Position numbers and translations under genes: made by a program. The notes beneath the pieces are model-generated. The model worked only from the letters and a program-made list of their open reading frames with translations. It was not told the DNA's origin and did no database searches. 64,000 bases of DNA from a virus (taxonomy: Duplodnaviria > Caudoviricetes): positions 24,657 to 88,656 of IMG/VR virus record IMGVR_UViG_3300027007_000012; one strand, given 5' to 3'. The stretch's first letter is position 1; every line of letters begins with the position of its first letter. Of this stretch, positions 31,076 to 54,200 are shown in pieces.

Positions 31076-33835
31076 ATGACAACAGCGAACCTCCTGAACC
31101 AGAAGGTCGGTAAATTCGGCCAGGTCCCCGGCGCCGCCTCTCGTGCTCGCATGTCCGAGCTCGTCGAGGGGAAAGGCGCACTCGATCTCCGCGACTACCA
31201 GCAGCATTTCGAAAAAGCGTTCGACGATAAAGTCACTGCGCAGCTCAAGTTCGAGAACTGGTGTTGCCGCGTCAAAGACAAGCTGATAGAGGAGTCGGGC
31301 ATCACTCTCCGCCCCTACCAGAAAGAGTTCTCGGACCGTATCATCAAGTCGGTCGTCAGGAACGACGGACAGACGTTCTTCGCCGAGTGGGCCCGACAGT
31401 GTCTCGACAAGGACACAGTCGTCCTCGACTACGACGGTTCAGCCACCCGCATCAAGGACCACCCGAGAGCGTGGAAGACCGGCGTGAAAGATGCGTACCG
31501 TCTCAAGACGCAAGGTGGGTGCGAGATCGTCGCCACCGATAATCACCCGTTCTGGACGCCTGACCGAGACTTCGTCGACTTGGGAGACCTCTCGCCTGGT
31601 GACCTGGTTGGAGTCACTGATGGTATCGACCGCCAGTGGAACGACGAACAGGTGTTCGAAACCACGTACGAGAAGTTCGTCAACATCCACCGGACGGACA
31701 CAGTCGATCTCCGAGAGCCTGTAACACACGACTTCATGGTGTTCCTCGGACTGATGACCGCTGACGGCACCGGGTACGAACCCGACTCGTCACAGTCGGT
31801 GAAGTTCACGAACACGAACCGTGACTACTGCGAATGGGTTGCTGATTTCGCCTACCGACGATGGGGTGTCGACCCACAGTGGTACGAGAAGGGCAACGGC
31901 TGGGACGTCGTTCTGTCGACGCGAGACAACGGTGCGACGAACCCCGTGAACGAAGCGTTCCGCACTGTCGAGCTCGACGATGGCTTCCCTACGGCGGTGT
32001 TCGACACTAACCCCGAGGCTGTTGCGTCGTTCCTCAACGGTCTGTGGGCGGGCGATGGCTACCTCTCTGTCATCGATGAGTCGCGTGACCGCACGGGAGG
32101 TCGTATCGATCTCGGCGTTGCTGGTGGCAACCGAGAGGTGTTCGTTCGGTATGTCCAGCAGCTGCTCCAGAAGGTCGGCATCGAGGCCCGCGTCAAGCGC
32201 GAGGTGATGGAGAAGACGACTGATGGAGAGCAGTTCTACCGCATCCTGGTTAACGGGACACACGGGGCGAAACGGTTCTTCGACCTGATGGACCCGGTAG
32301 TGGGGAAAGAAGACGCGTATGCTCGCGTGAGGGCGGTCGTCGACGCGCGTGACGGACGTGGGCGTCGTGTCTACGGCGATCACACGGAGCCGACTGGTGA
32401 ACACATCGTCTACCGGAAGGTCACGTCCATCGAGTACGTCGGGGAACGAGAGGTCTGGGACGTTCGCTACCCAGGGAAGGACTGGTTCATCGGTCAGGGA
32501 TTCAAGACGCACAACAGCGGGAAGACGGAGACGCTGGCCTCGACAGCCTACGTCATCAGTGTTCTGTTCGCCCCGATCCGCATCGGTATCTTCGGTCCAA
32601 AACAGCGACAGGCGCAGATCATGTGGGACCGCGTGAAAGAGCGGTACAACCAGGATGTGCTCAGCGGACTCGGGCTGGAGATCGAGAAGTACGGGGGAAA
32701 CACGTTCAAGCTGTCCTCCGGTTCTGTAGTCCAGGCGATCACGGCGGGCTCGGGGAACATTGAGGGGGAGACCTTCGACCTGATCCTCATCGACGAGACG
32801 CAGAAGATCAGTCGCCGGATGCTCCTCGCCGAGATCTGGCCGATGGGCGCTGAGACCAACGCGACGAAGTGCTGCATCGGGACACCGCACTTCCAGGACT
32901 GCTGGTTCCGCGAACAGCTGGAGCGGCTGAAAGGCACGCCGTTCTGCATGATCTACGACTGGCGGACGCCAGCGAAATACTCACAGAACTACCGGAAGTC
33001 GATCGCTCGCCAGTTGGAGCAGATGAGTCCCGAGTCGGAGGAGTTCCGCACTCAGTACGAGCTCGAGTGGATTCTGGAAGCCGGGATGTTCATCACGATC
33101 GAAGACTGGCGTCGGATGAACCCCGCGCCGCTGCTGGCGCCGGTCGTCACGAAGGAGGACCTCCGGGACGACGATGTAGACTCGAAGTGGCAAATCCGAG
33201 CGGGGCTGGACCTCGCGAAGGAGCACGACTCGACCGTCCTCACAGTCACTGGCAAATACTTCGGGTCGTGGGACCCTTACTGGGATTACTTCTCGAACGA
33301 GACGATCGTCCTCCTCGACGTGGTCGAACTGGAGGGGCTCGAATACCCCGACCAGATCGACATCATCAAAGAGGAACTCGACCGCTGGCACGCAGACGTC
33401 GTTGGGGTGGACTCGACAGGTGTGGGTGACCCGGTGACGGACATCCTGAAGCGAGAGTTGAACCAGTACGTCGAGGGCATCAAGTTCTCGCAGGCGAGCA
33501 AGCACGACCTGTACAAGCACGTCGAGCGGAAGGTGAAAGTCGAGGAGGAATGGGACTACTGCAACTTCGTCATCCCGAAACAGGTCCGGTCGTATCCCCA
33601 CCTGGAGGTTTCGATGCGGAAGATGGAAGATCAGTGGCTGGACCTCACGAAGGAGTACAAAGGGTCGCGGATGCACGTCGAGGGGCCGGACAGTGGGCAC
33701 GACGACTTCCCGGACTCGGCGGCGCTCGCCATGTGGTGCCAGGACGCCGACTACAACATCGACAAGAAGCACATGACATCCCCGACCCCGGTCCTGGGGA
33801 CGATGGATGGGATCGGCGCGACGATCGGGTACTGA
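31076..33835 (+). CDS. terL: Terminase large subunit containing an intein
   Basis: LRPYQ adenine motif, split Walker A ARQ/SGKT, Walker B LILIDE, nuclease motifs GLDLA, VDSTG and HDDFPDSAALA. Confidence 0.92.
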   Translation: MTTANLLNQKVGKFGQVPGAASRARMSELVEGKGALDLRDYQQHFEKAFDDKVTAQLKFENWCCRVKDKLIEESGITLRPYQKEFSDRIIKSVVRNDGQTFFAEWARQCLDKDTVVLDYDGSATRIKDHPRAWKTGVKDAYRLKTQGGCEIVATDNHPFWTPDRDFVDLGDLSPGDLVGVTDGIDRQWNDEQVFETTYEKFVNIHRTDTVDLREPVTHDFMVFLGLMTADGTGYEPDSSQSVKFTNTNRDYCEWVADFAYRRWGVDPQWYEKGNGWDVVLSTRDNGATNPVNEAFRTVELDDGFPTAVFDTNPEAVASFLNGLWAGDGYLSVIDESRDRTGGRIDLGVAGGNREVFVRYVQQLLQKVGIEARVKREVMEKTTDGEQFYRILVNGTHGAKRFFDLMDPVVGKEDAYARVRAVVDARDGRGRRVYGDHTEPTGEHIVYRKVTSIEYVGEREVWDVRYPGKDWFIGQGFKTHNSGKTETLASTAYVISVLFAPIRIGIFGPKQRQAQIMWDRVKERYNQDVLSGLGLEIEKYGGNTFKLSSGSVVQAITAGSGNIEGETFDLILIDETQKISRRMLLAEIWPMGAETNATKCCIGTPHFQDCWFREQLERLKGTPFCMIYDWRTPAKYSQNYRKSIARQLEQMSPESEEFRTQYELEWILEAGMFITIEDWRRMNPAPLLAPVVTKEDLRDDDVDSKWQIRAGLDLAKEHDSTVLTVTGKYFGSWDPYWDYFSNETIVLLDVVELEGLEYPDQIDIIKEELDRWHADVVGVDSTGVGDPVTDILKRELNQYVEGIKFSQASKHDLYKHVERKVKVEEEWDYCNFVIPKQVRSYPHLEVSMRKMEDQWLDLTKEYKGSRMHVEGPDSGHDDFPDSAALAMWCQDADYNIDKKHMTSPTPVLGTMDGIGATIGY
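31400..32515 (+). mobile_element. Canonical intein with LAGLIDADG homing endonuclease in the TerL Walker A (372 aa)
   Basis: Starts CLDKDT, ends KTHN before Ser+1; FLGLMTADG and FLNGLWAGDG blocks. Confidence 0.92.
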
Positions 33836-43069: not shown

Positions 43070-43233
43070 CGCTCCTAACTACTCTTAGGGATTAGCGGAG
43101 CAATCCATAGTTTTGCAGCAAACCTACCCAGAAGTTGTCAGAAGCGGCGTGTAAGATACCCGCGCGTATCTCGCATACTATCTTCAGACATCCGGGAAAT
43201 TTATCGGGGGTTAAATCTTATTTAACCAATATA

Positions 43234-44292
43234 ATGGTAGAAGCACACTATTTTTTCTCAACCCTTGCGCAGGCAAGTGCTGCAATCGTCGGTTTCGTTA
43301 TTGCGGTCGCCGCCGCCCTCTACTCGCTGGAACGACAGCGAGTTGAGCGCCGAACAGACGAATATCGGGATGCTCTAACCGAGTTTAGGAATCGATACGG
43401 ATTCGCCCTGGTGACGTTAGATAGGATGCTGGAGGGAGAGGGAGGTGAAACAACGTATCAGATGACCGATGATCTCTCACTGGATAACGATGAGTTGGAG
43501 GAGATCGTGCGCGAGGAATACGAAGAAAAGCCGGTCACATCGTTGTACTTGGCGCACGTACGCAGAATCCTTGGAATATTCAATCGAATCGGGCCAGAGA
43601 ACGACTACGTCCTCACCCCTGACGAGTTAGAAGCTCTTCGAAAGAGTGTCTACTGGATGTATATCCAATTCTACAATATTGGGGATGAACCCAACTCCGC
43701 GATTAAGGAGTTTGTAAAAGAAATGACGGGAAAATATTACTCTGAGTACGATGATTCGGCGGATATCACATTATTCGGGGGTGAAATCGAAACCAAAGGT
43801 TTCAGTCCGGGCCAGTTTCAGCAGTGGTTCAAAGAGAGGAGGGCCGTTGAGTCCGAAATACTCAGACCCGCTCCCGATGAGGACGATGTACTCGAGATTC
43901 GAGACGAATACATCACCGGAGATAATTTCGGGACCATAAAGATATTCTCAAAATACATTTGGGATGATTTTCATAAGGTGCTACGCGAGTCAGCGGGAAC
44001 CGTGGTTCACTACGAACCCGGGATCCGGCCAGTCGTGAAAATTTCTACGTACTTGATTCTCGTAGGCGTGATCCTCCCAACGACGTTCCTGTTCAGTTCC
44101 CCGGTGACACTTCCGACGTGGTTGATTCTGACGATTCAGGTGTTGCTTCTTGTAGGGACGCTCATACTGGCTCTGAGCCTCGTTGAGTTTGTTCTCCTAT
44201 CTGCGGAACCGACTAATCAAATGGGGGATGAAAAGAATCTAAGTAGGCTTTCGTCAACAGTTGTGAACCTACTCCCGCAACTTCCTGTCTAA
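43234..44292 (+). CDS. Membrane protein with N- and C-terminal TM segments, in a compositionally distinct island
   Basis: TLAQASAAIVGFVIAV and two C-terminal hydrophobic helices; visibly AT-richer DNA. Confidence 0.75.
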   Translation: MVEAHYFFSTLAQASAAIVGFVIAVAAALYSLERQRVERRTDEYRDALTEFRNRYGFALVTLDRMLEGEGGETTYQMTDDLSLDNDELEEIVREEYEEKPVTSLYLAHVRRILGIFNRIGPENDYVLTPDELEALRKSVYWMYIQFYNIGDEPNSAIKEFVKEMTGKYYSEYDDSADITLFGGEIETKGFSPGQFQQWFKERRAVESEILRPAPDEDDVLEIRDEYITGDNFGTIKIFSKYIWDDFHKVLRESAGTVVHYEPGIRPVVKISTYLILVGVILPTTFLFSSPVTLPTWLILTIQVLLLVGTLILALSLVEFVLLSAEPTNQMGDEKNLSRLSSTVVNLLPQLPV

Positions 44293-44405
44293 ACCCAATT
44301 TAGGAAATATGAGTCTCCGCTGGTCGACCTGGTAAATTCACAAGAGGTTTTATACTCATACCACGGAAACATACAAATCAAACTACCCTTACCCCCCAAC
44401 CCGAT

Positions 44406-45809
44406 ATGTTTACTGACTCCATCACGTCCGAAACACTGACAATCGACGGCCCTGATACCACCGGGGAGATCAAACTCACACTCACCGAAGCCGGTGAAAT
44501 AACCTCGTCAGTGACCGGTTACATTCCAGCACCAGAACCAGCCACTGACTCCCTCGCGCAACTCGCTGGAAACACCGCACCGCAATACCACGACTTCCAC
44601 GGTGAAGCACTGGATGGAACCGGTGCCATGATCACTGGCGCCGTTACAGAAAGCGATTACACTGACTCATCCGACGGATCACTCACTGATATTCGCCCAG
44701 CATCCGCGACATTCAACTCTGCACCTGACACACCATTCGTAGACCAGTCCGTTACGATTAAATTCGATATGCTGAACTTCCGTGCACCGAAATACATTTT
44801 TCCACAACCTGACGACCTACCGCTCCTCACTCGTGATGGCCTCACCTTTCACTCGGACCGACTCTCCGATTTTGACGATCGCCTCAACCTGATCAAGGAA
44901 TACCGTCGGTCACTCCGTACTGGAACAATCACGCTCACTCAAGCTGTGAATGGTCCGGTGGATAGGCAACTCAATAAAGCGCTTTCCTCGCTACGCCCCG
45001 TGACGTGGCTGCTTGCGTTCGTCCAGGGCGTGTACCCAGCACCGATTCGTGCCCGAATCACCGAGGTGGACGATGACAGCATTGCGTGGACATACGAGCG
45101 GTGGATGACAACATGGCGGAACGATATAGGGAATGCATTTACGGAGCGAATCGACTGGGCGAACGACGCCCGCGTGTTCTTAGATGACGCGTACGATCGA
45201 TTCGATGACCGGGCCGATGATTATCGGTACCGCCGGTGCATCTCGTGGTATCTCGATGCGTTACTCGACCGGACGATAGATTGCCGCGTCGCGTCGATTG
45301 CAGCCGGAATTGAGATATTGGCTGAACGTTACGCTGCTTACAGCGATGGCCCAGTTGATAGTGACGGAGAAAGTGAATATGAGAATAGTCGTGTATTCCG
45401 CGTTAGTGAGGTGCTCCGCGACGTACTTGCTTGTCTCCGCAACGTAGCGGATGAGAATGAGTCCTTTGAGTCCAACCGTGAGAAGGACGATGATTCCAAG
45501 GGAAAGACAGCTGCACGGATCCAGCATCTCGTTCAAGAACTCAATGTGAATGTGGATGACCTCGTTGAGTTCAGCGAATCGTTCGACTCGAATCCAGGTG
45601 CGGTGGATGAGTACTTCTACGCGACGACACGAAATTTTGTGCTGCATAACGCTCGTGACGAACACCCCTTTGATTCAGTATTCACAGATTACGAGGCTTC
45701 GTTGACCTTGTTTCGTCGAATTTTGTTCAAGGAGTTAACTGGGTGTGTGGAGCATAACCGGTACACAGGACTCTCGGACTTAATGCCGACTGATCAGCGA
45801 TTCGAATAA
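44406..45809 (+). CDS. ApeA-like HEPN-domain protein, putative anti-viral RNase
   Basis: WYLDAL...IAAGIEILA and C-terminal RNFVLH (Rx4H HEPN motif). Confidence 0.65.
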   Translation: MFTDSITSETLTIDGPDTTGEIKLTLTEAGEITSSVTGYIPAPEPATDSLAQLAGNTAPQYHDFHGEALDGTGAMITGAVTESDYTDSSDGSLTDIRPASATFNSAPDTPFVDQSVTIKFDMLNFRAPKYIFPQPDDLPLLTRDGLTFHSDRLSDFDDRLNLIKEYRRSLRTGTITLTQAVNGPVDRQLNKALSSLRPVTWLLAFVQGVYPAPIRARITEVDDDSIAWTYERWMTTWRNDIGNAFTERIDWANDARVFLDDAYDRFDDRADDYRYRRCISWYLDALLDRTIDCRVASIAAGIEILAERYAAYSDGPVDSDGESEYENSRVFRVSEVLRDVLACLRNVADENESFESNREKDDDSKGKTAARIQHLVQELNVNVDDLVEFSESFDSNPGAVDEYFYATTRNFVLHNARDEHPFDSVFTDYEASLTLFRRILFKELTGCVEHNRYTGLSDLMPTDQRFE

Positions 45810-47223: not shown

Positions 47224-48254
47224 ATGACCGCAGATACCCAGTCTACCAGCACCGGGTCTACAGAGGACCGGGAGCTGATGAGAGTGGATGTGCTCGCTGA
47301 GGACGGGCACCTCCACGAGTTTCGAAACGTCGTCGACGCGCACGAGCGTGGCGACGGGGTCCAAGTAACGTATCTCGATGACGATGAGGAAATCGTCGAG
47401 AACGTCGGCGAGATGGGCGGGCGCATCGTGTGCGCACTCATACCGGCCAGGTACGGGGAGCGGCGCGATGATTGACCCGGTCTACCTGGTGGTCCTCGAC
47501 GGCGAGTGTGAGGTGTTCGAGGACGGGTATGGGTTCCAGACCGCCCACCGCGTCGCTGTGACAGACTATTACGGCGACTTCCAGTTCCCGAACGCTGAGG
47601 TACACCTCCCGGCCATCAAAGGACACGGGGCCAACGGGAAGGTCTACGTCAAAGAACAGGACATCAACTACATCGTCGACCTGTCGACCGACGAGTTCAG
47701 ACCCGTCGATGGGGAGCGTGAGTGACGTGACTGACGACTTTGTCCCCGTCCGACGGGAGGACGCTGAGACGGCCGCAGACGAGCTCGAGTTGCTCGCCGA
47801 GTCCGTCCAGGATGAAGACCCCGCTGTAGAACGGAACGTGAGAGCGGGCCTGCTGGAGGCCGCAGAATCGATCAGGGTGTCACTCGCTGGTGACCACGAC
47901 GGAAAGCTCAGCCACCCCGACCGTGAGACGTGTGTCAGAGAGGAAGTGTTCCTCGAAGAAGACCCGACTGACGAGTACCTGGATGAGGCCGGGTGGAACG
48001 TCGTCTACAACTGTCCACTGTGTGGTCGGCGCTACGAATACTTCTACGGGTTCGAGGGCATCTACGACACGGAGACGAAGCGGTACATCACGTCAGAGTC
48101 GTTCGACCCCTCGTGGGAGTGGGACGAAGAAGACGGGTACCACGATGGACAGTGTTTCTCGATCCCCGCCACCGACGACGCCCGGTACGAACGGGTGTAC
48201 ATCATGGACGGGCTGTACGACCCGCTCGATCACGAACAGATCTGGAGCGTCTGA
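47224..48254 (+). CDS. Three hypothetical proteins (47224-47475, 47468-47725, 47709-48254, the last with CPLC)
   Basis: Coupled acidic ORFs. Confidence 0.7.
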
Positions 48255-48940
48255 TGGCGGTTACGACACAGTATCCCGGGAGCCTCCCGGACTGGTACCA
48301 CCAGCACGACTACGCGGCGGTCGAAGACCGACTTGCTGCTGTACGAAAGGTGACCCTCGGCGGCGATATCGAGCAGGCGGCCGAAAACCTGCGACGGGCG
48401 TACTACTTCGCAGTCCTGTCGATTCGGACGGTCAAAGACATCCACGAACACGCGTTCGAGCTGTGGATGGACGGCACCGCACTTGAGGACGCGGTGCGTA
48501 TCACCGGAGTCAACTTCTACAAGAACAAGCTCAGCTGGATTCGAGAGACCGAAACGTCGGTCCACTGGGAAGGACTCGTCAGCAGTGTTCGTGACCACGT
48601 CGACGACGACGAGCTCGGGTCACTGATGGACCTGAACGAACGCTTGTGTGGCGTCCACTACGCGAAGTGGGGGTTCACACTCGCCCTCGCCGGCGTCTGG
48701 GAAGTGATCTGCATCGACAGTAACGTCAAGAACCACTACGGCATCGGCGGACGGCTCGACTTGCGGTCGAAAGGGGGCATCGATACCTACCGGGAGATGA
48801 TAGACCGCGTGGTACAGGACGTTCCGGCGGATGTCCCACCGTTCGTCGCCCAGTGGGTTGTCTACGACTACCAGCGAGGTGAGCACGCCACACACGACCC
48901 GTACTTCGCGGCGGCGTACCCGTTCGTCGAGAGGGCATAG
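48254..48940 (+). CDS. HhH-GPD DNA-glycosylase-like protein
   Basis: YFAVLS, GVNFYKNK, CGVHYAKWGFTLALAG and ICIDSNV align by eye with the Ogg/HhH hairpin and catalytic Asp. Confidence 0.55.
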   Translation: MAVTTQYPGSLPDWYHQHDYAAVEDRLAAVRKVTLGGDIEQAAENLRRAYYFAVLSIRTVKDIHEHAFELWMDGTALEDAVRITGVNFYKNKLSWIRETETSVHWEGLVSSVRDHVDDDELGSLMDLNERLCGVHYAKWGFTLALAGVWEVICIDSNVKNHYGIGGRLDLRSKGGIDTYREMIDRVVQDVPADVPPFVAQWVVYDYQRGEHATHDPYFAAAYPFVERA

Positions 48941-49942
48941 ATGGACGTCGCCGAGATCTACGAGCAAGAGATCAACGCCCGGGAAGACATCATCGAGGCG
49001 TGTCCTATCGACATCTACGTCGCGTCGATCAACCCGTACTGGGCCTACCCGAATAAGCTGATGGCGTACTACGAGACGCGGCCTGGCGTTCGTGACTCGT
49101 GCCGCCAGGTGATCGTCGACTCCGGGAAGACACGTATCGGCAACATGAGCGAGATCATCGACGCGGCCATCGACATGGACGCCGACCAGGTGATCCCGCC
49201 AGACCCGACACCGTACACAGACGGATACGACGATCTCACGCCCCACGGTCACGCCGAGGAGCAGGCACAGCACTACTGGGAGTGGTATCGAGAAGACGTC
49301 GACGGGAAGCTTCTGCTCCCGATTCACCCGCCGTATCAGCGATTTATCGAGGAGCTCGGTCGGTGGGACCCGGGACACATCCTCGGCTACGAAGACGACC
49401 CGTACTTCGACTACCCGAGTACGCCCGACGCTGAAGAACGCTACCTCGCCGGCGTCGAGCACTATTCGCTCACGTACGACCTGGTCGGTGCCGCCGATGG
49501 CGTGGCGGTCGGTGGCCTCCTGGGCCTCGACGTCTTCGAGCAGATCACGGCCCTCAAGCAAGTGCGCAAGGCGGTCGGCCCGTACAAGCACGTCCACGCA
49601 CTGTCACCGACACCTCGGCCCGAGATGTTGCTGTTCCTCCGACGCAACCCCGGTGTTATCGACTCGCTGGACCTGTCGACACCGGAGACGGCACCGGCCG
49701 GGAACAAACTCCCCGACCTGCGGTTCTACCCGCAGATGAAGTACCTGTTCCCACCAGCACACGCGAACATCAGCCCCGTCAGGGGCGCGGCGTCGACGAT
49801 GATCGCGCTGATGCTCAACTTCTGGTTGAGCGAGTGGGTCAAAGAGGAGGAACTGCTCGACATGCTCGAGGAGCACTACGACTGGGTCGAGCGCGAGCCC
49901 ACCGCACAGACCGGCCTGGAGGCGTTCGGGCATGGCGACTAA
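48941..49942 (+). CDS. Divergent TGT-fold (queuine tRNA-ribosyltransferase/DpdA-like) protein
   Basis: VIVDSG, GVAVGGL, VHAL and IDSLDLST motifs. Confidence 0.7.
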   Translation: MDVAEIYEQEINAREDIIEACPIDIYVASINPYWAYPNKLMAYYETRPGVRDSCRQVIVDSGKTRIGNMSEIIDAAIDMDADQVIPPDPTPYTDGYDDLTPHGHAEEQAQHYWEWYREDVDGKLLLPIHPPYQRFIEELGRWDPGHILGYEDDPYFDYPSTPDAEERYLAGVEHYSLTYDLVGAADGVAVGGLLGLDVFEQITALKQVRKAVGPYKHVHALSPTPRPEMLLFLRRNPGVIDSLDLSTPETAPAGNKLPDLRFYPQMKYLFPPAHANISPVRGAASTMIALMLNFWLSEWVKEEELLDMLEEHYDWVEREPTAQTGLEAFGHGD

Positions 49943-51161
49943 CCTCGTCGATAGCGGGCACAGACCCACCCCGGAACGGGAGACGTTCAGACACGTCTGG
50001 GCCGGCGAATCCGGGCCGTGGGTCGTTCTCGAACGCATCAAAGGGACGCGAACGGATAGCGGTGAGATCGTCGCCGAGTGTGACGACTACCTGAACGCCC
50101 TCGCGTACACCGTCGACAACGAGACTGAGGACTGGGTGACTACGGAGATTGCGGGCCAGTGCTGCAACTGTGACCAGTTGGTTGTCGTCGACGAGCTCGC
50201 AGAAGAACCACTGTGTCCACACTGTGACGACGTGCTGTGGCTGGCCACCGAGCAGCGGAAACTCGCCGAGTTCGCGCGGGAGCGACTCTCGTTCGACATG
50301 TACTGGGGCGTTGCGTCCGGCGCACAGCGGAAAGCGATTCGCGTTCTCGCGCACGGCTTCGACCATCGCGAGCCCGACGATCTCAACATCATGCTGAACT
50401 ACGCGACGCAGAACAATCAGGTCCTGACCGAGAAGGGGCTTGAGCTCGCGACAAACGTCGACACGTTGTTCATCGACTCAGGGGGCTACTCGTTTTTCGA
50501 GCGTGAGGGTGGGTACGATACGTCGGATTATGAGTATCTCAGGTACATTGCTCGAGTCCAGCCAGACTACTTCGCGCTGAGGGATTACCCATGCGAGCCC
50601 GATATCCTGGATGCACGCGACACGACCATTCGATGCCACCAGCAGCGGACGACAGAGAAAGCCCAGATCCTGCTCGATATGCTCGATGACTTTTCGATCA
50701 CGGCCACACCCGTCGCGGTCGTCCAGGGGTGGGCGCCCGATGATTACCGGTCACACCTCCGTCAACTCAACCGTGCGGGTGTCCTCGACCAGGTAGAGCA
50801 CATAGGCATCGGAACCCTCTGTGGTCGGGAAGACGTCGCCCAGATCGCGACGATCATCGAGACGGTCAGAAAGAGTGTCGGCCCGGACTTCAAGATACAC
50901 GGGTTCGGGGTGAAACGAGAGGCGTTGGAACGACCGGACGTCGTCGAGGCACTCGATTCGGCGGACACGCTGGCGTACAGCATGAAACCGATGTACGATT
51001 CCATCGCTACTGGTGGCATCCTCTCGAACACTTGGAAACACGAAGCCTGGGGGTTCTTGGACTACTACGCCACGGTCCACGAGTCACTCAGGATGATCGA
51101 GCACGGAGAAGCCGACGAGGATGTTGTCGCCCAACAGACCCTAACGTCATATGGAGACTGA
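49932..51161 (+). CDS. dpdA: DpdA-like 7-deazaguanine DNA transglycosylase with an N-terminal Zn-ribbon extension
   Basis: LFIDSGGYS, DYPCEP, VVQG, IGIG, IHGFG and DSADT motifs; N-terminal CCNC...CPHC. Confidence 0.8.
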   Translation: MATNLVDSGHRPTPERETFRHVWAGESGPWVVLERIKGTRTDSGEIVAECDDYLNALAYTVDNETEDWVTTEIAGQCCNCDQLVVVDELAEEPLCPHCDDVLWLATEQRKLAEFARERLSFDMYWGVASGAQRKAIRVLAHGFDHREPDDLNIMLNYATQNNQVLTEKGLELATNVDTLFIDSGGYSFFEREGGYDTSDYEYLRYIARVQPDYFALRDYPCEPDILDARDTTIRCHQQRTTEKAQILLDMLDDFSITATPVAVVQGWAPDDYRSHLRQLNRAGVLDQVEHIGIGTLCGREDVAQIATIIETVRKSVGPDFKIHGFGVKREALERPDVVEALDSADTLAYSMKPMYDSIATGGILSNTWKHEAWGFLDYYATVHESLRMIEHGEADEDVVAQQTLTSYGD

Positions 51162-51293
51162 AAGGAATAGAGTTGCCAAGCTACTGTCTTGCGATTTCAA
51201 TAGGTAAGAAAACAGAAACTTATTTTACCTACTACTGCATACTATAGATTACCCACCCGGCACCAGGCCAGGTGGTGTGGAACGGAGTTACTA

Positions 51294-54200
51294 ATGGAAG
51301 ACGAAGGACCAGATACGCACGATGTGCCCGGACACGACCGGGCCACCGGTATCGACGATCCCGTACCCGACAGCGAGTACGGCGATCAGGACTACCGACC
51401 AGAGGACGAGGTCGACCCCGCCGAGAACGACGACGGCTACACGATGGAGGACGAGTACGCTGTCGACGATGTCGACGGATACGGTTCGGCACAGCACTAC
51501 GGAACATACTGTGCAGACGGATTTGCGCAGGCGGCTGAGCAAGCACAGGCCGAACACCCGGCCCTGGACCTGGGATTCGTCCACGTCACCCACCTGGAGA
51601 CTGGGGAGACACAGCACGTCGAGGTGCACACTGGGGGCGATGACGTCCCCGACGATCTCGTGGTCGAGCTCGAGGGAGACATCGGAACGCTCCAGCCAGA
51701 GGTCGACGACGAGGAGATGGAACGTGTCAACAACTCGCTCGAGGACTGGATCGCGTCGCTGGAGCTGAACGCGTTCCTCGACACGTACGACTACATGTGG
51801 GCCGAGTACCCCGTCGGTGACACTGACGAGGTCGTCTACGTCGTCCCCGACGCTGAGCGGTCGTTCACGACGAAGGAGGAACTCGCGTACTTCATCCACG
51901 AGTTCGAGCAGTACCCGAAGCAGGTGGCTGTCACGGCCACCGTGGACGTTCGATTCGACCTGATGCTCGCATCGCCAATGCGAGACTCTGAGGAGGTCGC
52001 AACGAATCAGCTCGTCGACGCGGTTGAGTCGGTCGGACTGACCGTCGACAACGCGACCATCGTCGACGTGGCGGACGTGCCCGAGTACCCGGAGAGCGAG
52101 CAGGCCGATCCAGTGGACCCGATCCCGGACATCGGAGACACCGTTCGGTTCGTCCTCCCGGAGGAAGATGGCGAGTTCGACGGCGTCGTCAGGAACGTTA
52201 GGGGGTTCGACGGGAGTGTCGAAATCGAAGTGCAGACCCCACCGGACAATAACCAGACCTACGTGTCACCAGAGCAGATCACGGCCGTCCAGCCCGCTGA
52301 GGACGCCGACACGCCGGACCACGAGGTGTTCAACTGATGGGTCTGTTATCCAAAGTTCGACGCATGGTGTCGCGGTCTTCAGACCCTGACCCCTCCCCCG
52401 TGGAGGCTGACAACGAGGCTCTGGAGCCTGTGACACGCGACGTGCATATCTACCCGGACATCGACGACGTTATCGAGTTCGGTGGGCGTCGTGGTCGTGT
52501 CATTCGGTACGAGAACGGGACGGCCGTGATCGTCAAACTCGAGGAACAGCCGGCTCTTACGCCTGTCAACGTCGAACAGATCGACTGTATCGTTGCTGGT
52601 GGAAGTCCGCGCCTCCCCGACCACGACGTGTTCGGCACAGAAACGCCGGACCACCCCGTCTTCGACGCAGACGAGGACCTCCCGGACCACGAGGTATTCG
52701 CATGAGCGATGACGAGGAGAGTCTGTTCGAGGTGACGGTCACTGTCTCGTACACGGAGACGTTCGACCTGGAACGCGCTTCAAAAGAGGAAGCCCGAGAG
52801 ACGGGCGTGTTCTACGTACAAGACGACATCAGTCAGGGCGTCATCGACATCGATGCCTTCGACATCAACGCGACCGCCACGGAGGTCGTTGAATGACCGG
52901 GACGATCAGGAACATCGGTCGAGAGCCTATCGGGGAGTGGGAGTTTATCGTCGGCTTCGGTCACGCCGTCTACGGCGCGGTCACGCCCGATGGAGACATC
53001 ATCGCGTTCATCGGCTGGTGGCAATCGAGCTACGCCACTCGGACACAGATGGCGATCATCCGGGCGCTTGCAGACGATGAGTACCGCGGGCGACCCAGCT
53101 TCCGTGACGACCACGTTGTCGTCACCACGCAGTCGAGCCAGGTCCCCGACGTCCTCCCACCGTCGCTGTACGAGTACGCGAACGACCGCGCGGCCGCCGC
53201 CCACGGGGTGGCGGTATGACTGTCGTCGACGTCGTCATCTCGTTCGCTACCTCGGCGAAAGTCGAGATCGGCGACTACGACCGAGAAACCGCCTTCGGCG
53301 ACGACTTCCCATGGAAAGAGTTCGACGATGCGCTGGTCGAGTATCTCGACTCACTCCCCGAGGAGGAACTGCGCGAGCTCTATCGCGAGCCCGAGGCGAT
53401 CGCCATGGACGACCCAATCTTCGGCGGTTTCGGCGACGCAGAGGCTGATGTCGAGATGGAGGTCGAGTGATGTCCGGCGTGGAGTTCAGCGGCGAGCCAG
53501 ACCGTGTGGTCGACGGGTCCGACCAGGACGAAACGGTCGATCACGTCCCGGACAACATGGCTGCTCACTTCGCGAGTGCCTACGAGAAAGGCGCGCTCGC
53601 GAGGCGACGCGGCGAAGACCGGTCGGAGAACCCGTACGTCGCACGGTACAACCCGGACTCAGCAATGGGCGGTGAGTGGGGCCACGTCTGGTCCAACGCA
53701 TGGCGCCTTGGCTGGGAGAACGAACAGCGAGACGAAGACGGAGAGCGCCTACTGAACTACCGAAAGGCGTGGAAGATGGGGCGCTGAGACGATGGCGACC
53801 GTAGACGATACGACCCAGGGTACACTCTCCCGGATTCCACCAGAAGCGCGGTGTGTGAACTTCGCCGACTGTGGGAACGAAACGCCCGGTGGCGAGGAGG
53901 CTGGCAACATGATGTGTGACGACTGTCTCGACGAGGCGCGAGCTGCTGGCGCTGGACACGACCTGGGCGTCGACGAAGACGACGAATAGAACGTAGACTA
54001 ACCCGAATGAACCGAACTGAACTGAAGGAATCAGCCATGCCGTAACACGACAGGCGAATCGAATAGAAGTGACGTAGCAAGGACGAGAGATAGATGGCAC
54101 AGCATACACGGCCATACCCGTACGCAGAATCGCTCCGGAACACGCAGCTGATGGACCTCTACGAGACAGGTCCACGGTTCTCCGACGAGCTCCCGAACGG

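Follow-up and report, generated by a model that had tools for sequence, protein, structure and literature searches.

A coupled gene chain with a glycosylase-like gene and two DpdA-like genes

The DNA studied here is a window of 64,000 nucleotides (nt), bases 24657-88656 of a linear virus contig of 88,656 bp in IMG/VR, and its source is a haloarchaeal tailed virus from a salt lake. Within the window, six plus-strand genes at 47224-51161 all overlap or abut, as read from the table of junctions and gaps. The last three, called here A, B and C, are our subject: A (48254..48940) encodes a protein of 228 amino acids (aa) with a predicted Ogg2-like glycosylase fold, B (48941..49942, 333 aa) a putative divergent transglycosylase of the tRNA-guanine transglycosylase (TGT) superfamily, and C (49932..51161, 409 aa) a DpdA-family protein carrying a zinc ribbon. 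A preliminary description, made from the sequence alone, had singled out the same abutting or overlapping genes at 48254-51161 as a helix-hairpin-helix (HhH) glycosylase-like gene followed by two different TGT/DpdA-like genes, and had suggested that together they might form one new pathway of DNA base modification. Its coordinates and junctions proved accurate. The ATG of A shares 1 nt with the TGA of the gene upstream (TGATG), B starts directly after the stop codon of A (TAG-ATG), and B and C overlap by 11 nt. Such overlaps or abutments throughout the chain suggest that its genes are co-expressed.

Gene C groups with PF23859 DpdAs and carries an N-terminal zinc ribbon

Gene C matched Pfam family PF23859 over residues 174-352 (core nt 50451-50987) with 74.4 bits against a cut-off of 27 (E 1e-20), and it also matched phrog_1279 (1.6e-28) and, weakly, the DpdA models of NCBIfam (1e-8) and PADLOC (8e-8). 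Its score against the NCBIfam equivalog NF041059 was 34.4 bits, below the cut-off of 200. By these profile scores C is classed as a DpdA-family protein and not as an equivalog of the bacterial Dpd-island enzyme; a search of solved-structure sequences with C returned nothing. About 90 homologues, 33-45% identical and 260-290 aa long, were found in haloarchaeal viruses and genomes.

All motifs quoted for the two DpdA-like genes in the preliminary description were present. In C these are DSGGYS at D182, QG at Q265-G266, HGFG at H323-G326 and DSAD at D342-D345. Residues D182, D218, Q265-G266 and H323 were invariant in a 34-sequence alignment of the family, and S343-A344-D345 were kept in at least 90% of its sequences, D342 in fewer than 90%.

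The extra zinc-ribbon domain previously attributed to C was also found, within an N-terminal extension of ∼115 aa. It has the form CxxC-x14-CxxC (C77, C80, C95 and C98; nt 50160-50225) and gave a weak match to an RpoP-type zinc ribbon of NCBIfam at residues 76-99, while an ESM Atlas search with the extension produced no usable match. Only two orthologues, P0166 and P0167 (90% and 72% identical to C), share the extension; both keep the zinc ribbon and both adjoin a B gene. The occurrence of the extension next to B genes only points to co-adaptation of B and C.

Gene B is assigned to a DpdA clade without a Pfam model

Gene B had no match in Pfam, PHROG, NCBIfam or PADLOC. Assignment to DpdA4 (DUF6610, PF20314) was ruled out, as even at E<=10 the contig contained nothing that matched DUF6610, and none of 78 B-family members matched it at E<=0.01. 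A word-indexed search recovered 5 homologues of B, and a full HMMER profile search 178 representative clusters (50% identity). Among the 78 members scanned, weak Pfam TGT matches were present in 11, a fusion to DUF6884 in 2 and PF23859 in none. The B-family profile found a single, chance-level match in solved-structure sequences, a TraO chain (E 0.3).

That B is a second and different TGT/DpdA-like protein, as first described, was borne out by profile alignment and by structural modelling. Alignment of the B and C families with hhalign gave a probability of 98.5% (E 2.3e-15), pairing the DSG aspartates and the HGxG histidines, and the hidden Markov model of the B family matched gene C at 6.6e-14. 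The AlphaFold2 model of B had a predicted local distance difference test score (pLDDT) of 88.8, with a low-confidence insertion at residues ∼140-180 particular to its subclade. Foldseek matched it to the TGT of Z. mobilis (E 1e-7, probability 1.0, template-modelling (TM) score ∼0.42). In VIA-align the top five matches all belonged to the TGT superfamily, namely arcTGT (Z 16.1), DpdA 7ui4 (16.0), bTGT (15.6), Cap10 (14.5) and QTRT2 (13.9), and generic TIM barrels scored Z 13.7 or less. The predicted fold of B is thus a TGT-type TIM barrel. The Cap10 entry in this list (9ntn_B) is a TGT-like protein of type IV CBASS (cyclic-oligonucleotide-based antiphage signalling system) that attaches deazaguanine to protein; it shows that TGT-fold enzymes are not restricted to nucleic-acid substrates.

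The closest named relative is the 'DpdA' gp33 of Halorubrum tailed virus 29 (HRTV-29), itself without a Pfam match. With hhalign, gp33 aligned to the B family at 99.95% (E 9e-38) and to the C family at 88% (E 3e-6). On these profile comparisons B belongs to the HRTV-29 'DpdA' clade and is closer to gp33 than to PF23859 DpdAs, which makes it, as judged from sequence, a member of a real but unmodelled DpdA clade distinct from DpdA4/DUF6610. Across the 78 B-family sequences D60, H219 and D244 were invariant, and D88, D241 and S242 were kept in at least 90%. The corresponding motifs in B are DSGKT at D60 (nt 49118-49120), HAL at H219 and DSLD at D241-D244 (nt 49661-49672).

Gene A has a predicted Ogg2-like glycosylase fold

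Gene A had no direct match in Pfam, PHROG or NCBIfam, and none to Ogg-HhH (PF22175) or HhH-GPD (PF00730); the A-family profile found nothing in solved-structure sequences. Its AlphaFold2 model (pLDDT 89.3) was matched by Foldseek to MjOgg (3knt), Tm1821 (3n0u) and SsOgg (3fhg) at TM 0.6-0.73. The best VIA-align match was 3n0u (Z 16.6, root-mean-square deviation 3.0 A over 189 residues), and EndoIII, OGG1, MutY and AlkA-type enzymes scored Z 8-11. We can thus confidently predict a two-domain, all-helical HhH-GPD fold closest to Ogg2. Structure prediction, proposed in the preliminary description as a check on the TIM-barrel TGT and HhH folds, hence supported the former for B and the latter for A. 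The queuine-salvage hydrolase Qng1 (DUF2419), of the same superfamily, was also considered for A; its structures 7ugk (Z 8.6) and 7u07 (Z 7.8) scored far below Ogg2.

The HhH hairpin of A spans residues 131-147 (nt 48644-48694), with G133-V-H between helices 121-130 and 136-145. Lys138 (nt 48665-48667) and Asp155 (nt 48716-48718), 17 residues apart, are invariant in the A family, and Asp155 caps helix 156-162. Using tblastn, homologues of A were found in the haloviruses HGTV-1 and HATV-2 (29% identity over 87% of the length, E 1e-16 to 3e-17); these matched Ogg-HhH and HhH-GPD of Pfam below threshold, and the HGTV-1 homologue has the canonical GVG hairpin. The ESM Atlas look-alikes of A were viral clusters, some with Ogg-HhH, and BFVD contained a viral protein 41% identical to A. 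Hairpin, lysine and aspartate together appear to form the layout of bifunctional HhH-GPD enzymes. The model and these residues make it most likely that A is an active Lys/Asp HhH-GPD glycosylase/lyase acting on DNA purines.

Ogg-type pockets distinguish guanine from 8-oxoguanine at the N7/C8 edge, which is the edge altered in 7-deazaguanines. Since such pockets read this edge, and since the HhH-fold glycosylases Dag1 and Dag2 attack 7-deazaguanine-modified DNA, A could discriminate between marked and unmarked guanine.

Proposed activity of B and C, and source of the base

B and C both keep the DSG aspartate, a second aspartate 28-36 residues further on and the DSxD motif. In bacterial DpdA the triad Asp95/Asp130/Asp256 is essential, Asp95 acting as acid/base, Asp130 binding the base together with His181, and Asp256 serving as nucleophile (PMC10164549). 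By their order and similar spacing only, the aspartates of B and C may be mapped onto these three. By analogy with the characterised enzymes we infer that each of the two replaces guanine in double-stranded DNA with a 7-deazaguanine supplied by the host.

The interpretation that we favour, and hold to be moderately likely, is that the operon provides two co-expressed DNA-guanine transglycosylases from two DpdA clades, which use host preQ0 and protect the viral DNA. B would be of the HRTV-29 type and C of the PF23859 type with a zinc ribbon added. In each, an aspartate would displace guanine in double-stranded DNA, the enzyme being covalently bound to deoxyribose in the intermediate; the free 7-deazaguanine that then takes the place of guanine would be preQ0, or a closely related derivative, from the haloarchaeal host. 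The purpose would be to shield the viral DNA from host restriction.

The base would come from the host, as no genes for its synthesis were found on the contig. Such genes had been reported missing from the window, and we extended this to the whole 88,656-bp contig, which at E<=1 gave no match to QueC, PTPS/QueD, GTP cyclohydrolase I (FolE) or radical-SAM models; the same searches recovered QueC and QueD in Haloferax volcanii as a positive control. A haloarchaeal host makes preQ0 for tRNA archaeosine. Scavenging of host preQ0, already put forward in the preliminary description, is therefore the natural inference from the missing synthesis genes, and the same model has been published for DpdA-only phages (PMC6884629) and for HRTV-29 (PMC8651126).

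B and C are only 33% identical, over 58 residues; therefore the two divergent enzymes would most simply represent two target-site specificities, or possibly two substrates. The main alternative to two specificities is that B and C form one heteromeric enzyme like eukaryotic QTRT1/QTRT2, one subunit being catalytic and the other serving for targeting or as a scaffold, with the zinc-ribbon extension of C mediating pairing or the choice of DNA sites. TGT enzymes act as dimers, the 11-nt overlap would couple translation of B and C, the extension of C is present only where a B gene adjoins, and QTRT2 was among the structural matches of B. Against such a heteromer, none of the candidate catalytic aspartates is missing from either protein and each family usually occurs alone, and we judge it improbable.

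Another view would be that viral DNA is not the target of B, of C or of both: they might act on host tRNA or, as Cap10 does, on protein, or be inactive remnants, leaving the viral DNA unmodified. The place of Cap10 among the matches of B would agree with this, as would the presence of B-type genes in cellular chromosomes and the finding that some DpdA-only phages have unmodified DNA. Yet C scores as a DpdA and not as a tRNA TGT in four libraries, the catalytic residues are strongly conserved, and neither a PUA or other tRNA-binding domain (Pfam scan) nor a QueC-like Cap9 partner (contig QueC search) was detected. A target other than viral DNA thus appears very unlikely.

Several points weigh against two DNA-modifying enzymes fed by host preQ0. 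Among DpdA-only phages, Orion has unmodified DNA, and in 7-11 only 0.02% of G is modified (PMC6884629). The subclade of B has HALS where HGxG is usual and a histidine where the wider family keeps glutamine, and it is ambiguous which aspartate of DSxD is the nucleophile. With the contig 72% complete by CheckV, absence of preQ0 genes is likely, not proven, for the whole virus. Specialisation of the two enzymes for two sites or two substrates is conjectural. As to gene A, its Pfam link is transitive, passing through HGTV-1 gene 294, which scored 24.9 bits against the cut-off of 27 for Ogg-HhH and 21.1 against 26.2 for HhH-GPD; and K138 presumably lies one residue later in the HhH motif than the lysine of EndoIII and OGG1.

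Gene neighbourhoods and the relation of A to the transglycosylases

The order A-B-C recurred only in near-identical contigs, two close siblings being found in IMG/VR. One syntenic relative carries an A-B pair 1 nt apart, 54-60% identical to the genes described here, without C, and an element of Halorarum carries B-C with an unrelated 160-aa gene in the slot of A. B stands alone in one Halobacterium plasmid and three cellular genomes. More widely, B-type genes occur singly or with other upstream partners and are found in cellular chromosomes too, and C-type genes are mostly singletons. Genes of the A family at similar identity adjoin unrelated genes in three metagenome contigs (L008, L009 and L010), and the complete genomes of HGTV-1 and HATV-2 contain a homologue of A and no B-type, PF23859 or DUF6610 DpdA.

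The suggestion that the three genes constitute one new pathway found no support in the form proposed, given that each family occurs without the others, that B belongs to the HRTV-29 clade and that the Halorarum element has B and C without A. Because A, B and C are each found apart, their adjacency in a few syntenic relatives is weak evidence for a tie between A and the transglycosylases. Moreover, where A-B is shared between loci the flanking genes are shared too, and A and B may therefore lie side by side because the gene order was inherited, rather than through independent association.

A gene on the same strand is tightly coupled directly upstream of B in 5 of the 7 non-redundant B-type loci. 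These partners fall into four unrelated families: DUF6884 in HRTV-29, a 246-266-aa protein in two loci, A in the virus studied here, and the 160-aa protein in Halorarum. DUF6884, reported to bind lesions, to flip bases and to be related to YaaA (PMC11701544), had no match on our contig. A may have an accessory role, as B-type genes usually have a coupled upstream gene and DUF6884 reportedly flips bases.

Such a role would make A a dedicated partner of B in an integrated pathway of three enzymes, where it might flip or pre-process the target guanine, remove abasic by-products left when exchange aborts, or edit the base once inserted, taking the part that DUF6884 or other upstream genes would play for B-type enzymes and DpdB for bacterial DpdA. 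The stop codon of A abutting the start of B, the equally close A-B pair in the relative, the recurrent upstream partners, the fusion of DUF6884 to 2 of 78 B-family members and the ability of HhH glycosylases such as Dag1 and Dag2 to read 7-deazaguanine in DNA (bioRxiv 10.1101/2025.10.29.685425) all speak for this partnership. It is opposed by the A-family genes that stand away from any B or C gene, by the distant homologues in complete genomes devoid of any DpdA type, by the Halorarum element and by the shared flanks of the A-B loci. In addition, TGT-type exchange needs no separate glycosylase. On balance we consider an integrated pathway unlikely. The distribution of A better fits an independent repair or discrimination enzyme than discrimination tied to the module, and A is rather likely to be an independent DNA-repair or discrimination enzyme that merely shares the operon, and not to perform a step of base insertion.

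Alternatively, the genes could make up a competition module resembling restriction-modification, in which B and C mark the viral DNA and A attacks unmarked or differently marked DNA of the host chromosome or of competing viruses. The modifying enzymes would here be co-expressed with a probably bifunctional Lys/Asp glycosylase; HhH glycosylases that degrade 7-deazaguanine DNA provide a precedent (bioRxiv 10.1101/2025.10.29.685425), and bacterial Dpd is itself a restriction-modification system (PMC10164549). But relatives of A are found in viruses and loci without DpdA, where a glycosylase against unmarked DNA would be self-toxic, and A had no PADLOC match, so that we regard such a module as highly doubtful. 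A more elaborate model may be imagined, in which B-type DpdAs are modular and depend on a coupled partner that flips bases or handles lesions, the Ogg2-like A replacing DUF6884; together with C, targeted by its zinc ribbon, they would form an ATP-independent machine that writes 7-deazaguanine at two kinds of sites from scavenged preQ0, with A proofreading the mark or destroying unmarked DNA. We rate this model as quite improbable.

Further observations were made on these loci. In HRTV-29 the upstream partner is gp32 (L007:5598-5999, NC_062762), annotated as 'peroxide stress protein YaaA', which matched DUF6884 (E 3e-31) and overlaps the start of the DpdA gene by 8 nt; DUF6884 may be a regular partner of the HRTV-29-type DpdA clade. 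The 246-266-aa protein (L015:3211-4011 and L016:3271-4011) has no family match and overlaps the start of the B-type DpdA gene by 11 nt. Its two copies, 35% identical, come from two unrelated haloarchaeal contigs and represent a second candidate partner family. Relatives of A were looked for among these upstream partners in L015 and L016 and in the 160-aa gene that precedes B in the Halorarum element, and none proved to be related to A. Likewise, the genes adjoining A in L008 and L009 were not related to B, and the genes following B in L005 and L004, considered as hidden DpdAs, were not DpdAs. In a Halorientalis metagenome-assembled genome (L026:7974-8531) a B-type gene is broken over three reading frames and is probably a pseudogene or an assembly error.

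In L008, L009 and L010 the A-like gene lies in a conserved block with duplicated families (313/423 aa and 480/506/531 aa) without an assigned role, a NUDIX hydrolase, a weak ParB_N-like protein and several sugar-nucleotide epimerases or dehydrogenases. This block could be another DNA- or glycan-modification cluster.

The Halorarum element (L003) is a 149-kb 'plasmid' of Halorarum halophilum (CP058532), whose gene order at 106256-123308 matches that of the virus: hexapeptide transferase, ThyX, a 181-aa gene, B, C, an acidic 347-377-aa gene, an HTH_10 regulator and ribonucleotide reductase. This 'plasmid' probably represents a provirus of plasmid-like form, and its synteny suggests the host group of the virus.

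Other features of the region and the contig

The gene chain opens with two small open reading frames on the plus strand, neither with a Pfam match. The first (47224..47475) encodes 83 aa and is preceded by a gap of 109 nt; the second (47468..47725), of ∼85 aa with an uncertain start, overlaps both neighbours. They are followed by the plus-strand gene of a 181-aa acidic protein with a CPLC motif (47709..48254), of which a 51% identical copy lies upstream of B and C on the Halorarum halophilum plasmid. After C, an AT-rich intergenic spacer of 132 nt (51162..51293) closes the chain. The next chain opens at 51294-52337 with a protein of 347 aa that is very acidic (26% Asp+Glu, 3% Arg+Lys) and has no family match; both the Halorarum plasmid and L005 carry a counterpart, 32-38% identical, directly 3′ of their DpdA genes. 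Scanned with PADLOC, A, B and the flanking genes had no match.

Just upstream of the region, at 43135-45809, two genes have a lower G+C content (∼0.50 against ∼0.60) and a lower G+C at third codon positions (0.56) than their neighbours, and look like a recently acquired island. The proteins of the contig are acidic, ThyX and a GlmU-like gene are present, and an intein with a LAGLIDADG homing-endonuclease domain splits the large terminase subunit (31076-33835). Searches of isolated phages and haloviruses with the 5.5-kb region (blastn) and with gene B (tblastn) returned no match. The presumed portal gene also had no match among isolated phages, and for this reason the virus was not placed in a family.

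Significance and comparison with known systems

Modification of DNA with 7-deazaguanine is a main viral route of escape from restriction, with DpdA regarded as the signature enzyme. The published DpdA subfamilies are bDpdA and DpdA1-4, and current Pfam models do not detect the HRTV-29-type clade, which has ∼178 representative clusters at 50% identity. Viruses with DpdA only, host scavenging, the DpdA of HRTV-29 and the 'endonuclease III' genes of haloviruses are already on record. In the literature we found no mention of a viral operon that combines two DpdA clades, of a DpdA with a zinc ribbon or of an HhH glycosylase gene coupled with a DpdA gene. A single operon can hold two distant DpdA clades, and if their target motif or substrate differs, this would offer a natural test case for DpdA specificity. 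The upstream genes of four unrelated families hint at an unrecognised accessory factor, comparable to bacterial DpdB, and to find an HhH glycosylase encoded by a virus next to its DpdA genes is of interest since host HhH glycosylases have been shown to attack 7-deazaguanine DNA. These questions can be tested in Haloferax volcanii, a preQ0 producer.

Among known glycosylases, the Ogg2-type 8-oxoguanine glycosylase/lyases (3n0u, 3knt and 3fhg) come closest to A in structure, at only 11-15% identity; in A, an invariant Asp follows the HhH hairpin and the second HhH helix contains an invariant Lys. HGTV-1 gene 294 and HATV-2 gp064, both annotated 'endonuclease III', share the invariant G133, K138, D155 and N157; they differ in standing alone among small hypothetical genes, in genomes without DpdA. 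Dag1 and Dag2 likewise have the HhH fold and act on 7-deazaguanine-modified phage DNA, and Dag1 uses Lys/Asp and appears bifunctional (bioRxiv 10.1101/2025.10.29.685425). They are host-encoded anti-phage enzymes, unlike the virus-borne A.

The bacterial Dpd system of Salmonella Montevideo (PDB 7UI4) has the TIM-barrel TGT fold in common with B (Z 16.0), and the three essential aspartates of its DpdA follow one another in the same order, and at similar distances, as the conserved aspartates of B and C (PMC10164549). Neither DpdB (a ParB-like ATPase) nor DpdC, restriction genes or YaaA/DUF6884-type genes were found by Pfam among the operon genes and their neighbours, ParB_N and DUF328 not having been searched contig-wide. 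In archaeal viruses, DpdA4/DUF6610 (HVTV-1 gp69) is a TGT-like enzyme assigned to the insertion of 7-deazaguanine into DNA (PMC10516641). HVTV-1 differs from the present virus in having its own preQ1 pathway and its DUF6610 enzyme, the latter being absent from the matches of our contig.

The singleton PF23859 DpdAs of Salmonella phage 7-11 and of haloarchaeal viruses and genomes share their model with C and, as in the 'DpdA-only' group, have no synthesis genes alongside (PMC6884629); C differs from these typical members, of 260-290 aa, by its zinc-ribbon extension. The nearest parallel to B is HRTV-29 (Haloferuviridae, genus Dpdavirus). That virus has a single DpdA of 243 aa with a DUF6884 gene upstream and no PF23859 paralogue, whereas B, at 333 aa, has an insertion of ∼40 aa, an upstream neighbour of HhH fold and C as a partner. 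Both DpdAs nevertheless fall in the same clade and lack a Pfam match, and both come from haloarchaeal tailed viruses without preQ0 synthesis genes, for which, in the case of HRTV-29, hijacking of host preQ0 has been proposed (PMC8651126).

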